This document shows, piece by piece, positions 33,906 to 48,200 of a stretch of 64,000 nucleotides of DNA. The notes beneath the pieces were generated by a model, which saw nothing but the letters and a program-made list of their open reading frames with translations, searched no databases and was not told the origin of the DNA. How positions within the stretch are numbered: the first letter of the stretch is position 1; each line of letters opens with the position of its first letter. The DNA lies in NCBI GenBank assembly GCA_963788375.1, contig CAWBGT010000027.1, forward strand, positions 1,168,047 to 1,232,046. Direction: 5' to 3'. This DNA comes from an uncultured Chloroflexia bacterium. GTDB taxonomy: Bacteria > Chloroflexota > Limnocylindria > Limnocylindrales > CSP1-4. A program made the translations under genes and the position numbers.

Positions 33906-33997
<92 letters not shown>

Positions 33998-34007
33998 GTC
34001 ACAGCGT

Positions 34008-34083
34008 GCGCCCGTAGCTCAGTGGATAGAGCACCAGCTTGCGGAGCTGGGGGTCGTGGGTTCGAATCCCGCCGGGCGCGCCA
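34008..34083 (+). tRNA. tRNA-Arg(GCG)
   Basis: GCGCCCG/CGGGCGC acceptor; A20 in D-loop; CCAGC-TT-GCG-GA-GCTGG; G73; CCA. Confidence 0.95.
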
Positions 34084-43018: not shown

Positions 43019-44209
43019 TCAGCTCTCGACCGGTCCCAGCGACGGGGTCAGGAGCAGGGGGTCGCCCAGGCGGTCCGCGTACTTCGGGCGGAACCGGGCC
43101 GTGTCGTACGCGGCCAGCTGGACCCGGCGCGGCGGCTTGGCCGTCTCGGCGAGGGACACGTGCGAGTACTTGCCATCGCGGATGGCGACCATGCGCCCGC
43201 CGATGCCGTCGCGGATGAGGTCCATGGCGGCATTCGCGAACGTCGTCGCGACCATCGAGTCGAGCATGTCGGGCTCGCCGGAGCGCAGGTCGTAGGTCAG
43301 GTCCGACGCGACCGCCTCGATGCCGGTCAGGGCCTTGAGCTCCGACGCCAGCACCTCGCCCACGTTCATCTTGTGGCGGTGTCCGAACGCGTCCGCCTCG
43401 CCGACATCACCGAGCTCGACACCGTTCCAGATCGCACCCTCGGCGGTGATCACGATCGCGTAGCGGCTGGGGTTGTTGCGGTGGTCCTCCTTGACGATCT
43501 CGGCCAGGGCCTTCACGTCATAGGGGAACTCGGGGATCACGCAGCGCGTGGACGTCACGTAGGCCGTGTACAGGGCGGTGAAGCCGGCGTCGCGACCGAA
43601 AATGCGGAACACGCCAATCCGCTCGTGGGATCCGAGCGTCGTGCGCTGGCGGTTGAGGACCTCCTTGGCCCGCGTGATCGCCGACGAGAACCCGATGCAG
43701 TACTCGGTCCCGTTGACGTCGTTGTCCATGGTCTTCGGGATGGCGACCAGCGGCAGGCCCCGCTCGTAGAGGACCGACGAGAAGGACAGGGTGTCGTCCC
43801 CACCGATGGTCACGAGGTTGGTGAGGCCGAGGTGGGCGATCGTGTCCAGGACGTGGTCGGTGAGGTCGTAGACGCCGTCCGAGGTCTGCTTGTTCGCGAT
43901 GGACTTCGGGTCGAGCCATGCCGGCAGGGCGGCGGTGCGCATCTTGCGCGGGTTGGTGCGCGAGGAGTGCAGGATGGTGCCGCCGGTCCGGTCGATCGTC
44001 CTCGTGTTGTTGCGGTCGAGCACCCGCACGTACTGCGGATCCAGCTCGGCCGACCGGCGCTGGTGGGTCAGGCCCTCCCAGCCGCGCCGGATGCCCACGA
44101 CCTCGTAGCCGAGGTCGGTCGCCCGGTAGACGACGCTCTTGATGACCGAGTTGAGGCCGGGGACGTCGCCGCCGCCGGTGAGGATGCCGATTCTCCGAGG
44201 TGCAGCCAT
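43019..44209 (-). CDS. pfkA: 6-phosphofructokinase, PPi-type signature
   Basis: TGGGDVPGLN, GGTIL, GGDDT, PKTMDND, GRDAG. Confidence 0.92.
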   Translation of the reverse strand: MAAPRRIGILTGGGDVPGLNSVIKSVVYRATDLGYEVVGIRRGWEGLTHQRRSAELDPQYVRVLDRNNTRTIDRTGGTILHSSRTNPRKMRTAALPAWLDPKSIANKQTSDGVYDLTDHVLDTIAHLGLTNLVTIGGDDTLSFSSVLYERGLPLVAIPKTMDNDVNGTEYCIGFSSAITRAKEVLNRQRTTLGSHERIGVFRIFGRDAGFTALYTAYVTSTRCVIPEFPYDVKALAEIVKEDHRNNPSRYAIVITAEGAIWNGVELGDVGEADAFGHRHKMNVGEVLASELKALTGIEAVASDLTYDLRSGEPDMLDSMVATTFANAAMDLIRDGIGGRMVAIRDGKYSHVSLAETAKPPRRVQLAAYDTARFRPKYADRLGDPLLLTPSLGPVES

Positions 44210-44371
44210 TGGGGACTCCGCTGGGTCCCGGACGTGATGCTTCCGGGGTGATGGTCGAAGGCGCCGGCGGCGCGCGGTGTGCGCGCTGGAATCCGGGCAC
44301 GTGGTACGCCGGAGACGCGGCGCGGTACACCCGCAATCCTAACCCGGAGGCCGGTCGCTATGATCGCCACC

Positions 44372-44824
44372 ATGAACTACGAGCTGTTCATGGGCGAGGC
44401 ACTGGCCGAGGCACGCCAGGCCGCCGCGCGCGGGGCGCCGCCCGTTGGCGCCGTCGCCGTCATGAACGACGCGATGGTGGCGCGGGGCTCGAACCGGGTC
44501 GCCGAGAGCGCCGACCCCACTGCCCATGCGGTCCTCGCGGCCCTGCGTGAGGCGGCCCGCAAGCTGGGCACTCCGACCCTCGCCGACGTGACGATCTTCA
44601 CCACCATCGAGCCCTGCCCGATGTGCGTGGGCGCGATGCTCGAGTCCGAGGCCGCGGCACTCGTGTACGCGGCACCCAACCCCGTCTGCGGTGCCGCGGG
44701 CACCGTCATCGGGCTGGCCGACGACGACCGGCTCGGCCGGCGTCTCGACGTCGTGTCCGGGATCCGCCGAGCCGAGGCGGAGGAGCTCATGGGCGAGCTG
44801 GACGGGGCGGCATCCGGGGCCTGA
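44372..44824 (+). CDS. tadA: TadA-like deaminase-fold protein lacking the catalytic Glu
   Basis: PVGA, DPTAHAV (normally HAE), EPCPMC; tadA-SRP-dnaX-ybaB-recR synteny. Confidence 0.8.
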   Translation: MNYELFMGEALAEARQAAARGAPPVGAVAVMNDAMVARGSNRVAESADPTAHAVLAALREAARKLGTPTLADVTIFTTIEPCPMCVGAMLESEAAALVYAAPNPVCGAAGTVIGLADDDRLGRRLDVVSGIRRAEAEELMGELDGAASGA

Positions 44825-44890
44825 GCCGGTTCGGACGGCGCCTCATTCGATCCGTGGGCGCCTCGGGGCGCCTTTGCTATCCTTCGCGAC

Positions 44891-44976
44891 GGAGAGGTGT
44901 CCGAGTGGTTGATGGTGCCGCTCTCGAAAAGCGGTCTGCGCAAGCAGCGTGGGTTCGAATCCCACCCTCTCCGCCA
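44891..44976 (+). tRNA. tRNA-Ser(CGA)
   Basis: CCGCT-CT-CGA-AA-AGCGG; long variable arm; CCA. Confidence 0.97.
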
Positions 44977-45033
44977 CCAGACCTGATGACGACCCGACGA
45001 GACACCTCGTCGGGTCTTGCTATGCTCCCGCGT

Positions 45034-45121
45034 GGAGAGGTCGCCTAGTGGCCTAGGGCGCCGCACTGGAAATGCGGTATGGGGCAACCCATCGCGGGTT
45101 CAAATCCCGCCCTCTCCGCCA
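45034..45121 (+). tRNA. tRNA-Ser(GGA)
   Basis: CCGCA-CT-GGA-AA-TGCGG; long variable arm; CCA. Confidence 0.97.
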
Positions 45122-45203
45122 GTCCACCCGGCCCGCCGGGCAGCGTCCGCCCGGGGACGTGCCGCGAGGCGGCCCTCCGCCCGGCCCCTGCTATCATCGC
45201 CCG

Positions 45204-45470
45204 GCCGTGCTAGGCGGGGAACTAGCGGTGCCCTGTACCTGCAATCCGCTCCAGCAGGGCTGAATTCCCTCCCGAGGTCGGCGTTCTCGAGAGCCGACGG
45301 CGTTCGCGACGTTGAGGACCGGGTCCCGCGCAGCGGCGACTCGCGAACCGTGTCAGGTCCGGAAGGAAGCAGCACTCAGCGAAGCTCGCCGGGTGCCGCG
45401 GAACGGCCTGGTCCGAGCCGCGTTCACCGGTGGGCGCGGGAGCGTCCGGATCGACGGAGGGTGCACGGCA
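45204..45470 (+). ncRNA. ffs: Large bacterial SRP RNA (with Alu domain)
   Basis: Helix 8 TCAGGTCCGGAAGGAAGCAGC; 5' GCCGTGC pairs with 3' GCACGGC; Alu-like GCGGTGCCCTGTACCTGCAATCCGC; TATCAT -10 upstream. Confidence 0.93.
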
Positions 45471-45511: not shown

Positions 45512-46777
45512 TTGACCACAGGGACGCCCCACCAGGCCCTCTACCGCCGCTGGCGCGCGCAGACGTTCTCAGAGATCGTCGGCCAGGAGGCGGTGGTCGC
45601 CACGCTCCGCAACGCGGTGGCGACCGACCAGGTCGCGCACGCGATCCTGTTCACGGGACCGCGCGGTACCGGCAAGACCTCACTCGCCCGCATCCTCGCG
45701 AAGGCGATCAACTGCGAGAACCTGCAGGCGGGTGCGGACCCCTGCGACACCTGTCCGTCGTGCGCGGCGATCCGCGAAGGCCGCGCCCTTGACCTGGTCG
45801 AGATCGACGCCGCCTCCAACCGCGGGATCGACGCGATCCGCGAGCTCCGGGAGCGCCTCAACTACGCGCCCACGGACCTCAGGCGCAAGGTCTACATCCT
45901 CGACGAGGCGCACCAGATCACGAAGGACGCCTGGAACGCGCTCCTCAAGTCGCTCGAGGAACCGCCCGACTTCGTGACGTTCATGTTCGCCTCCACCCAC
46001 CCCCAGGGCTTTCCGCCGGCGATCCTCTCGCGGCTCCAGCGGTTCGATGTCCGGCGGCTCACCGTCCCGGAGATCACCGGGAAGCTGGACAGGATTCTGG
46101 CTGCCGACGACCGCGAGGCGGACCCGGAGGCGGTCCGCATCATCGCGGGGCTGGCAGCGGGCGGCATGCGCGACGCCGAGTCGATCCTGGACCAGCTGCT
46201 GTCGTCCACCGGCGGCCGGATCGAGGCGGAGGCCGTCCGCGACCTCCTCGGCCTCGCGGACGCCGAGATGGTGGGCGGTTTTGTCGACGCCCTCACCACC
46301 GGCAACGCGGCCGCTGGGTTCGCCCTGCTCGACCGGCTGGAGGAACGGGGCCGGGACCTGCGGGTCCTCCTCGACCAGGTCGTGGACGCTCTGAGGGGCC
46401 GGCTCATCGCAGGCCTGGCCGCGGGTGACCCCGCCAACCACGCCGACGCCGCGGCTGCGAGGCGGCTCTCCTCCATCGATCCCACCCGCCTGGGCCCGGG
46501 CGGGCTCCGCCTGCAGCTGGAGCTGGCGCTGCTGGAGCCCCCGATCCCGTCACCCGTCTTGCTCGCGGTGGCGGAGGGCCCGTCCCGCCGGACGGTCGCC
46601 GCGCCCGCCTCCTCGTCGGCGCCAACGGCCACCCGGGACGAGGAGCCTGAGCGATCCGCCTGCAGGGAAACCGCCTTCCGCGCGCGAGCCGGCACGCGCG
46701 GACGCGTCGACACGCGGGCCCGACGCAGCGACGCCCGTGGCGCCACCGGAGTCGGCCACGCCCGAGCCCACGCCTGA
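45512..46777 (+). CDS. dnaX: DNA polymerase III gamma/tau, N-terminal clamp-loader part (frame ends in the linker)
   Basis: LYRRWR, GPRGTGKT, Cys cluster, EIDAASN, ILDEAH, LKSLEEPP, GGMRDA; AGGAG RBS before TTG. Confidence 0.93.
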   Translation: MTTGTPHQALYRRWRAQTFSEIVGQEAVVATLRNAVATDQVAHAILFTGPRGTGKTSLARILAKAINCENLQAGADPCDTCPSCAAIREGRALDLVEIDAASNRGIDAIRELRERLNYAPTDLRRKVYILDEAHQITKDAWNALLKSLEEPPDFVTFMFASTHPQGFPPAILSRLQRFDVRRLTVPEITGKLDRILAADDREADPEAVRIIAGLAAGGMRDAESILDQLLSSTGGRIEAEAVRDLLGLADAEMVGGFVDALTTGNAAAGFALLDRLEERGRDLRVLLDQVVDALRGRLIAGLAAGDPANHADAAAARRLSSIDPTRLGPGGLRLQLELALLEPPIPSPVLLAVAEGPSRRTVAAPASSSAPTATRDEEPERSACRETAFRARAGTRGRVDTRARRSDARGATGVGHARAHA

Positions 46778-47263: not shown

Positions 47264-47572
47264 ATGGGCATGGGCAACCTGCAGCGCATGGCGATGCAGA
47301 TGCAGCAGGACATGGCGCGCGTCCAGGAGGAGCTCCAGACCGCGACGGTCGAAGGTTCGGCAGGCGGCGGCGCGGTCAAGGCGACGGTCACCGGAAAGCA
47401 GGAGCTGGTCGAGCTCGCGATCGATCCGTCAGCGGTGGACCCTGGCGATGTCGAGATGCTCCAGGACCTCGTCATGGCCGCCGTCAACGACGCCCTCAAG
47501 GCGTCGCAGGAGCTCGCGGAACAGAAGATGGGCGCAGTCACCGCCGGCCTGCGCATCCCCGGCATCGGCTGA
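47264..47572 (+). CDS. ybaB: YbaB/EbfC nucleoid-associated protein
   Basis: EGSAGGGAV, DVEMLQDLVMAAVNDA; between dnaX and recR. Confidence 0.95.
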   Translation: MGMGNLQRMAMQMQQDMARVQEELQTATVEGSAGGGAVKATVTGKQELVELAIDPSAVDPGDVEMLQDLVMAAVNDALKASQELAEQKMGAVTAGLRIPGIG

Positions 47573-47582
47573 TCGCCCGCCA

Positions 47583-48200
47583 GTGGCAAGCGCGGTCATC
47601 GAGCCCGTCGCGCGGCTGATCGAGGCGTTCGCGCGCCTCCCCGGGATCGGCCCCAAGACGGCCCAGCGGCTCACCTACCACCTGCTCCGGGCACCCGACG
47701 CCGAAGCGCGAGCCCTCGCCCGTGCCCTGATCGCCGTCCGCGACGAGGTGGTGTTCTGCGAGCGCTGCTTCAACATCAGCGACGCAGCGCTGTGCCCGAT
47801 CTGCCGGGATCCGGGTCGCGCCGACGACCAGCTGTGCGTGGTGGAGGAGCCACTGGACGTGCTGGCGATCGAGCGGACCGGGGAGATCCGGGGCCGGTAC
47901 CACGTGCTGCACGGGGCGATCAGCCCCATCGATGGCATCGGGCCCGAGCGCCTCAAGGTGCGCGAGCTCCTGGTCCGGGTGGACGAGGCCGCGATCGCGG
48001 GCAACCGGATCGAGGAGGTCATCATCGCCACCAACCCGACCCTCGAGGGCGAGGCGACCGCGATGTACCTGGGCGAGCGCCTGGAGGGACGCGTCGGGTC
48101 GGTCACCCGCATCGCCCGCGGCCTGCCCGTGGGCGGAGATCTCGAATACGCGGACGACGTCACGCTGATCCGCTCCTTCCAGGGACGGAGGGCCCTCTGA
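47583..48200 (+). CDS. recR: Recombination mediator RecR
   Basis: LPGIGPKTAQR, C4 zinc finger, YHVLHG, NPTLEGEATA, GGDLEYAD. Confidence 0.97.
   Translation: MASAVIEPVARLIEAFARLPGIGPKTAQRLTYHLLRAPDAEARALARALIAVRDEVVFCERCFNISDAALCPICRDPGRADDQLCVVEEPLDVLAIERTGEIRGRYHVLHGAISPIDGIGPERLKVRELLVRVDEAAIAGNRIEEVIIATNPTLEGEATAMYLGERLEGRVGSVTRIARGLPVGGDLEYADDVTLIRSFQGRRAL

Follow-up and report, generated by a model that had tools for sequence, protein, structure and literature searches.

The stretch of DNA analysed here (the window, 64,000 nucleotides of contig CAWBGT010000027.1 in assembly GCA_963788375.1) comes from an uncultured bacterium of the Chloroflexota class Limnocylindria, of a lineage that lives in soil and freshwater. 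At 44372-44824 of its forward strand, it contains a stop-free open reading frame (ORF) of 150 amino acids (aa) that encodes a protein with the fold of the tRNA adenosine deaminase TadA. The glutamate of the catalytic His-Ala-Glu (HAE) triad is replaced by valine in this protein, and we refer to the gene, a Glu-less TadA orthologue, as tadA*. It is the loss of this residue, in a gene that selection has nevertheless kept, that we address here. The features of the gene are as follows.

44372..44824, forward strand: tadA*, supported by the ORF itself, Pfam, NCBIfam, phmmer, AF2 (AlphaFold2) and Foldseek; an alternative in-frame start at 44360 gives 154 aa.
44525..44527, forward strand: CAT codon of His52, a zinc ligand, read from the sequence.
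44531..44533, forward strand: GTC codon of Val54, in the column of the catalytic HAE Glu according to the sequence and the phmmer alignment.
44609..44626, forward strand: E80-P-C82-P-M-C85, the zinc-binding EPCxMC motif, read from the sequence.
44346..44364, forward strand: GGAGG (44346-44350), an upstream ATG (44360) and the letters TATGAT (44359-44364), read from the sequence.

Two Pfam deaminase families match tadA* (PF14437, 1.1e-22; PF00383, 1.3e-22). Its best NCBIfam model is the TadA equivalog NF008113, with a score of 101.8 bits that lies below the cut-off of 150, and its best sequence match in the PDB is a bacterial TadA (6.5e-27). In phmmer alignments to solved TadA chains (7cph, 8e2q and 3ocq), which end near residue 140, Val54 aligns with the HAE glutamate; between it and His52 stands Ala53 (codon GCG). 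A preliminary description of this DNA, made from the letters alone, had reported an intact 150-aa frame with the zinc ligands kept and a GTC valine in place of Glu, and translation, codons and the phmmer column all agree with it. The drift that it had seen in two other motifs, from GEVP to GAPP and from DPK to NPV, is likewise present (residues 21-24 and 103-105, respectively). Asn41, which corresponds to the 'N in strand 2' feature of TadA, is found in tadA* at a position that is less than 80% conserved across the clade. The letters TATGAT, previously taken for a -10 box, are in place, but they overlap the in-frame ATG at 44360, and a consensus scan of 44100-45300 gave no sigma-70-like promoter and no terminator-like site. 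GGAGG lies nine bases ahead of this ATG, and the 154-aa form is the version of the gene caller (P0002).

Relatives are grouped below under f1 to f5, our working labels for families of Limnocylindria. f1 is the family of the window and probably corresponds to CSP1-4, and f2 probably corresponds to Limnocylindraceae. A word-indexed protein search gave at least 120 relatives among the matches listed, at 75-100% identity; many of those listed are labelled tRNA(adenine34) deaminase at the source, and one is named Candidatus Limnocylindrales. Within the genus, 18 orthologous ORFs were recovered from 19 loci, all with HAV (18/18). A scan with one genome per species yielded 80 loci, the titles of which are Limnocylindria, Limnocylindrales or Chloroflexota metagenome-assembled genomes, bar a few differently labelled bins. 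The triad in these loci is HAV in 73, HAI in four, HPV in two and HAL in one, and the motif EPC[AP]MC is found in 80/80. When the orthologues of f1 and f4 were pooled, 130 distinct sequences resulted, with about 50-60% identity between the two families and the frame intact throughout. None of them has Glu at position 54 (Val in 124, Ile in four, Leu in two), each of His52, Cys82 and Cys85 is present in 130/130, and 45 of the first 140 positions reach 95% conservation or more. Such a pattern suggests that position 54 calls for an aliphatic side chain, without demand for any chemical group, with the zinc site being strictly kept.

Residue checks in the fetched loci separate the families clearly: f1 has HAV in 27/27 and f4 has HAV in seven and HAL in one of eight, whereas f3 has HAE together with a C-terminal EFFxxxR helix in 11/11 and f5 has HAE in 1/1. 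Among 153 aligned rows of the nearest representatives, the HxE glutamate is present in 112, and the exceptions are nearly all members of this clade or fragments. These aligned counts supersede an earlier unaligned pattern count (HAV in 113/121, with five sequences lacking a match and three having other first matches). Since the loss of Glu is conserved across species, Val54 is not a sequencing error. The preliminary description had also considered an error unlikely, arguing that two base changes separate GTC from a Glu codon. The conclusion stands, but the argument is not needed: the valine codon is GTC in ten of the 18 genus orthologues and GTG, which is one step from GAG, in the other eight. 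Public sequencing runs matched 0.08-0.14 of the sampled words, most likely from the conserved tRNA and signal recognition particle (SRP) RNA parts.

Selection on the gene was estimated from the rates of nonsynonymous (dN) and synonymous (dS) change by the Nei-Gojobori method, using 17 equal-length genus orthologues (136 pairs; one 151-aa sequence was left out). The medians are 0.139 for dN, 0.698 for dS and 0.19 for dN/dS (range 0.02-0.31). The pfk gene next to tadA*, used as a control from the same 19 loci, gave a dN/dS of 0.18 (171 pairs, 391 ungapped codons). In other words, tadA* is under purifying selection, with a constraint as strong as that on the glycolytic gene pfk beside it, which excludes neutral decay as far as this analysis goes. 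Because it is conserved as strongly as pfk across two families, tadA* probably has some present function. The two comparisons proposed in the preliminary description, an alignment of orthologues and an estimate of dN/dS, thus bear out its view of a retained pseudo-deaminase: no f1 or f4 orthologue examined has the glutamate, and the gene is not evolving neutrally.

If the protein no longer deaminates, what has become of its substrate? In the 4.27-Mb genome (93% complete), ARAGORN identified 59 tRNAs, none of which has adenine at position 34 (A34). The arginine tRNAs are GCG, CCG, TCG, CCT and TCT, the last in two copies, and a tRNA-Arg(ACG) was looked for and not found in this 93%-complete genome. 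The GCG gene lies in the window, some distance ahead of tadA*.

34008..34083, forward strand: tRNA-Arg(GCG), a tRNA with G at position 34 (G34) in place of the usual bacterial tRNA-Arg(ACG); it adjoins tRNA-Ser(GCT) at 33906-33997, and the pair is also found in relatives.

The same tRNA recurs in the related genomes. It is found in 29 of the 30 loci fetched from the genus and f2, the thirtieth being a TCG gene, and in all five f4 genomes (5/5), which have no ACG among their arginine tRNA hits and carry tadA* within about 1.3 kb of tRNA-Arg(GCG). In 43 of the 80 species loci, GCG occurs within 6 kb of tadA*, and ACG occurs in none of them. Thus, every relative checked of the three families without an active TadA has GCG as arginine tRNA. 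In f3, nine genomes (G047, G064, G100, G082, G175, G134, G163, G123 and G070) have tRNA-Arg(ACG) beside tRNA-Arg(UCG); G122 and G102, both flagged, are counted in the f3 tRNA tallies. Two other f3 genomes, G044 (97% complete) and G090 (86%), have GCG beside tRNA-Arg(UCG), where their relatives have ACG (L160 1407-1481 and L182 1501-1575, respectively). In these two genomes, PF00383 matches RibD and Cdd only, and TadA was not found. TadA was not found in G070, G123 and G175 either (81-89% complete, ACG present), and we tentatively read these absences as assembly gaps. The pattern across families is one of HAE with ACG versus no Glu, or no gene at all, with GCG. The earlier suspicion that the lineage may not need inosine at position 34 (I34) is supported by these observations.

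A tree built from the 76-base tRNAs unites all GCG genes in one group (support 85). In those of f3, an acceptor stem of the f3 type is joined to anticodon and T arms resembling those of f4, and these genes may not be simple in-place changes from A to G. It is worth pointing out that the anticodon loops differ past position 34 as well, being T-T-GCG-G-A (U32, G37) in the GCG tRNAs and C-T-ACG-A/G-A in the ACG tRNAs (34008-34083 of the window versus f3 loci, e.g. L142 1501-1576). A single 'tRNA-His(atg)' call, in one of the 80 loci, was rejected as a false positive and not counted as an A34 tRNA: the ARAGORN model is poor, its stems are mismatched and it sits at the expected place of the SRP RNA. 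The decoding of isoleucine shows a further peculiarity. The genome has two tRNA-Ile(UAU) genes (G000:C16:397263-397339, forward strand, and G000:C25:35168-35245, reverse strand), and the TilS model TIGR02432 has no match in it, whereas all 14 control genomes have one (14/14). AUA may thus be read by a U34 tRNA instead of through lysidine, in which case wobble decoding would be rewired at a second point in this genome.

We then consider how the gene is distributed and how its proteins are related. With the tadA* protein as query at E <= 1e-8, matches were found in 39/44 genomes of f1, 49/50 of f4, 42/49 of f3 and 1/1 of f5, but in 0/6 of f2, and an earlier draw of f2 genomes likewise gave 0/16. 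These class-wide tallies include the unpublished genomes G156, G145, G139, G102, G126 and G131, none of which enters the residue-level statements. The f2 genomes are reduced (1.0-1.4 Mb), and their slot between tRNA-Arg(GCG) and tRNA-Ser(CGA) is without tadA; it holds a conserved dehydrogenase gene and, before tRNA-Ser(CGA), a 154-aa ORF of no assigned family (L056 184-648, reverse strand). PF00383 finds only a Cdd-type cytidine deaminase in f2 (4/5 genomes), and no TadA. The reduced-genome family f2 has lost the gene. CSP1-4 and the genome-reduced Limnocylindraceae are described as sister families, next to QHBO01 and P2-11E (PMC13212565).

A quick maximum-likelihood analysis of 58 sequences unites the f1 and f4 proteins with V, I or L (21 rows) in one clade with a Shimodaira-Hasegawa-like approximate likelihood ratio test (SH-aLRT) support of 100 and a stem of 0.97 changes per site. 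The f3 and f5 proteins form a separate clade (SH-aLRT 100), and the deeper branches are without resolution. The tree indicates that the loss of Glu in Limnocylindria has a single origin and is a bacterial event independent of ADAT3, the eukaryotic pseudo-active subunit considered below. It also bears on the idea that tadA* is a slowly decaying relic, which lost its function with the tRNA switch and has no present role. The long stem would fit a period of relaxed constraint, and the missing gene in f2 and in the two GCG-bearing f3 genomes points the same way. We nonetheless regard a relic as improbable. Its frame would hardly have stayed intact, and its zinc ligands complete in every orthologue, across two families that differ at some 40-50% of their residues; nor would it be expected to show a dN/dS practically equal to that of pfk at a dS of about 0.7, or to keep nearly a third of its first 140 positions at the level of conservation given above.

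The surroundings of tadA* tell where it came from. Its neighbours are the following.

43019..44209, reverse strand: pfk (6-phosphofructokinase), the divergent upstream neighbour and dN/dS control (PF00365, 3.3e-65).
44891..44976, forward strand: tRNA-Ser(CGA), directly 3' of tadA*, in 75/80 related loci.
45034..45121, forward strand: tRNA-Ser(GGA), in 70/80 related loci.
45205..45468, forward strand: large bacterial SRP RNA (Rfam RF01854, 181.7 bits).
45581..46777, forward strand: dnaX (PF13177, 5.7e-38; PF22608; PF12169), given from the first Pfam-matched residue, the true start being somewhat upstream, after the SRP RNA.
47264..47572, forward strand: ybaB/ebfC (PF02575, 2.6e-33).
47610..48200, forward strand: recR (PF21176, PF02132, PF13662, PF21175), given from the first Pfam-matched residue, the start being slightly upstream.

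On the 3' side, tadA* is thus followed by the two serine tRNA genes, the SRP RNA, dnaX, ybaB, recR and then an rRNA operon. The tadA-SRP-dnaX-ybaB-recR block recognised in the preliminary description is confirmed, with two tRNA-Ser genes between tadA* and the SRP RNA. The HAE TadA of f3 likewise lies near tRNA-Ser(CGA) and tRNA-Ser(GGA). tadA* is therefore the vertical descendant of tadA at its ancestral position.

Apart from the glutamate, the protein has changed at many positions that other TadA proteins hold constant. We compared 46 sequences of the V/I/L clade with 55 HAE sequences in one alignment. Positions that are 70-100% conserved in HAE TadA and are replaced in the clade are E22->A, V23->P, E54->V, Y76->F, V77->T, R93->D, G100->A, D103->N, K105->V, N122->G, H123->R, F143/F144->L/D and R148->S; the columns of E22, V23, D103, K105, F143/F144 and R148 are 80-100% conserved in the 55 HAE sequences. 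Among the features of the TadA family, Iyer et al. (2011, PMC3239186) name an E before strand 1, a basic residue after strand 4 and an F in the first C-terminal helix. In tadA*, all three (GEVP, DxK and the C-terminal-helix F) are changed. D103, K105 and N122 align with Asp104, Lys106 and Asn123 of the S. aureus enzyme, which are discussed as RNA contacts by Yokobori et al. (PMC3711424). The clade is also more acidic, with a median isoelectric point (pI) of 4.95 versus 6.66 in HAE sequences and a net charge of -5 versus -1 (-3 versus +1 in the C-terminal part). At the same time, the clade has acquired invariant positions that are new with respect to HAE TadA, most visibly an N-terminal helix with the motif NYELxM, which hints at a new functional surface.

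These replacements argue that tadA* has lost RNA binding, and they weigh heavily on one of the roles that had been suggested for it, that of a non-catalytic RNA binder docking on an anticodon loop, e.g. that of tRNA-Arg(GCG), as a chaperone or regulator. Such a role would suit a gene located among tRNA genes and, in f4, close to tRNA-Arg(GCG) itself, and inactive deaminases have been proposed as RNA-binding proteins (PMC3239186). However, the tRNA neighbourhood is ancestral, being shared with the active f3 TadA, and an RNA binder would not be expected to replace all of the TadA-conserved positions at issue (E22A, V23P, D103N, K105V, N122G, H123R, F143/F144 and R148) or to turn acidic, least of all in its C-terminal part. 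We consider this role very unlikely.

The glutamate of the HxE motif is the proton shuttle of deaminases with the cytidine deaminase (CDA) fold. From this established enzymology, tadA* should be catalytically inactive; E59A is the standard inactivating change in TadA (PMC9333457). Since Glu is lost, the substrate is missing and TadA-conserved residues are replaced, it is very probable that tadA* neither deaminates nor binds tRNA. It could be argued that tadA* is still an enzyme, one whose zinc site hydrolyses another substrate, with the help of some other proton shuttle or with no shuttle at all. Neither the three zinc ligands nor E80 nor any of the core varies, and with an aliphatic residue in its lining, the pocket could accommodate another ligand. 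On the other hand, a position that tolerates V, I or L shows no sign of selection for a chemical group, the nearest representatives retain the HxE glutamate nearly everywhere outside this clade and fragments, a change of this residue is just the one used to inactivate TadA (PMC9333457), and no clade-specific acidic or His residue stands out near the site, although this last test, made without coordinates, is a weak one. An altered enzyme thus seems quite improbable to us.

The fold itself, a TadA-like CDA fold of the helix-4 division, is predicted to be retained. The AF2 model of tadA*, built from a 101-row alignment, has a mean predicted local distance difference test (pLDDT) value of 94.1, with only residues 145-150 disordered. 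By Foldseek, it superimposes on solved TadA structures with a template modelling (TM) score of 0.94-0.96 and a root-mean-square deviation (rmsd) of 0.7-1.1 A. A homodimer is predicted as well: the interface score ipSAE is 0.84 versus 0.00 for the best control, at least 98% of contacts are shared between the runs, and the partner has a pLDDT of 90 or more. For comparison, the ipSAE mark is reached by 20/30 proteins solved as one-chain pairs and by 1/23 solved as single chains.

The predicted self-pairing is of interest also because the replacement of Glu by Val brings to mind the eukaryotic Tad3/ADAT3, a member of the TadA family which keeps the zinc ligands and has Val for the E of HxE (PMC3239186). 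In the PDB, tadA* has a match at 1.5e-10 to chains named 'probable inactive ... deaminase-like protein 3'. By analogy, tadA* might be a regulatory subunit paired with an active CDA-fold paralogue, as Tad3 is with Tad2, a possibility that the preliminary description had raised too. Some relatives do carry GuaD-type or other nucleoside-deaminase paralogues that could serve as partners. A search of the genome with PF00383 and PF14437 revealed no intact active TadA paralogue, so that neither a second HAE tadA nor, as noted above, tRNA-Arg(ACG) was found when both were sought as the preliminary description had proposed. The only other matching locus in the genome is of GuaD type (G000:C1, about 503,100-503,600, reverse strand; L030 1407-1891) and, when set against a relative's intact copy, spreads over three reading frames, which makes it a pseudogene or the product of assembly indel errors. 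Nor is tadA* a GuaD itself: GuaD, which has an HAE motif and a C-terminal segment belonging to its domain-swapped dimer, matches it in the PDB over residues 1-110 only, tadA* lacks the Glu, and the genuine GuaD-type genes of relatives look different. At E <= 1e-8, a second CDA-type match occurs in 12/40 f1 and 26/49 f4 genomes; with such a patchy presence in both families, an arrangement of the ADAT2/ADAT3 kind is not a general explanation. A heterodimer with a paralogue was rejected on this phyletic pattern and on the frameshifted state of its only candidate. As there is also no A34 tRNA available for editing, and tadA* is predicted to pair with itself, a regulatory subunit of this sort appears highly improbable.

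Taken together, these results make it quite probable that tadA* encodes a zinc-bound, probably dimeric pseudo-deaminase, which acts by binding a protein partner or a small ligand and not by catalysis; the role for which it has been retained would accordingly be one of binding. The course of events can be pictured as follows. The lineage would have come to read CGU and CGC with the G34 tRNA-Arg(GCG) instead of an inosine-bearing tRNA-Arg(ACG). Once A34 tRNAs had disappeared, nothing would have remained to edit. The proton-shuttle Glu could then have been lost to V, I or L, along with the TadA-conserved E22, V23, D103, K105, N122, H123 and FFxxxR helix, while the protein turned acidic. Selection would still keep the CDA fold, the His/Cys/Cys zinc site, the predicted TadA-like homodimer and the newly invariant NYELxM helix. 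It is tempting to go one step further and to suppose that the TadA fold has a second, editing-independent function, which alone has kept the protein under selection in Limnocylindria since the switch from A34 to G34 in tRNA-Arg. We regard this extension as roughly as likely as not, and we put it forward tentatively.

Several observations weigh against a binding protein freed by a change in decoding. The association between triad and anticodon amounts to few independent events, one for f1 and f4 (plus f2) and at most two more in f3, and by the tRNA tree the GCG genes of f3 may have a common ancestry with those of f4. The single f5 genome gave TCG, CCT and TCT genes, and a tRNA-Arg reading CGU and CGC was not found in it. 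A tadA* orthologue was not found in 6/24 genomes of the genus (69-88% complete) and in 5/44 genomes of f1 (90-97% complete). Together with its absence from f2 and the two f3 genomes, this means that the gene is dispensable in some settings. All genomes compared are metagenome-assembled. As for the dimer, the homodimer prediction may reflect likeness to solved TadA dimers, and conserved positions are not enriched in the predicted interface (12/36 versus 33/104 among the others; Fisher p = 0.84).

It is instructive to set tadA* against the known systems that it resembles most. With bacterial TadA (7cph from B. subtilis, 2b3j from S. aureus with RNA, 1z3a from E. coli and 1wwr from A. aeolicus), it shares the fold, the His/Cys/Cys zinc motif, the size, the homodimer (predicted for tadA*) and the position before tRNA-Ser, SRP RNA, dnaX, ybaB and recR. 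It differs in having no catalytic Glu, in the changed GEVP, DxK and NH motifs and FFxxxR helix, in scoring below the NF008113 cut-off, in its acidity and in the absence of tRNA-Arg(ACG) from its genome. The likeness to ADAT3 is limited to the kept zinc ligands and the Val at the place of the HxE Glu (PMC3239186). ADAT3 works with the active ADAT2 on A34 tRNAs and has an extra N-terminal domain (chain length 317), whereas tadA* is a single domain of 150 aa with no active partner and no A34 tRNA. In B. subtilis, yaaJ (tadA) is dispensable (PMC10454642), so that an organism with a similar tadA-scr-dnaX neighbourhood also lives without editing; there, however, the enzyme is active and the ACG tRNA present, whereas here both are changed.

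The closest parallel in decoding is provided by Mollicutes, in which, according to Yokobori et al. (2013, PMC3711424), tadA disappeared and GCG took the place of tRNA-Arg(ACG) once UCG had been gained. The rewiring of CGN codons is the same: a UCG tRNA is present, ACG has given way to GCG and A-to-I editing is unneeded. The f3 genomes with ACG and UCG side by side match the order of steps in that model. The difference is that Mollicutes lost the gene in tiny parasitic genomes, whereas these free-living organisms have genomes of 2-4.4 Mb and have kept a Glu-less protein under purifying selection over the age of whole families, only the family f2 having lost the gene. More broadly, Diwan and Agashe trace TadA back to the bacterial root and describe the loss of inosine modification in Spirochaetes and one proteobacterial class (PMC6063277). 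In a full-text search, no paper on a Glu-less bacterial TadA orthologue or on a Chloroflexota tRNA-Arg(GCG) was found, although supplementary tables, which lie outside such a search, may list Chloroflexota without TadA. The main text of the 2026 Limnocylindria paper (PMC13212565) has zero occurrences of tRNA, tadA and deaminase. As far as this literature search reaches, the finding is not published, and its parallels are ADAT3 and the loss of tadA in Mollicutes.

Two further kinds of Glu-less TadA homologue came up among the metagenome proteins. Six of the 120 proteins listed (P0142, P0272, P0274, P0279, P0283 and P0300) form a second HAV group, which is about 65% identical to Rhodothermales TadA and otherwise keeps the TadA motifs (GE.P, NH and partly FF..R). 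The tree places P0142 among HAE sequences and apart from the Limnocylindria clade, and the group probably represents an independent and more recent change from Glu to Val. P0199, a single metagenome protein of 155 aa, is a TadA homologue with an HPI triad and the source label tRNA(adenine34) deaminase; its cluster has no other member, and its contig is 1.3 kb long.

The usual view of I34 and TadA is that bacteria need them and that nearly all have them. Reading arginine codons with G34 is the archaeal way. Yet a whole group of free-living, large-genome Chloroflexota reads these codons with G34, so that TadA's known job is unnecessary there. As a statement of activity, the source label 'tRNA(adenine34) deaminase' carried by many of these proteins is very probably wrong. 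The group offers a natural example of decoding being rewired, with the UCG tRNA present, ACG giving way to GCG, the enzyme inactivated and finally lost in a reduced genome. It also offers a bacterial counterpart of the ADAT3 pseudo-enzyme, one without an active partner, and a way into a second role that the TadA fold may have. Should the fold indeed have an editing-independent function, the route from Glu to Val towards a zinc-bound pseudo-deaminase would have been followed independently on three or more occasions (by eukaryotic ADAT3, by the Limnocylindria protein and by the Rhodothermales-like metagenome proteins), and the Limnocylindria clade would be a natural separation-of-function mutant for finding roles of TadA besides inosine.

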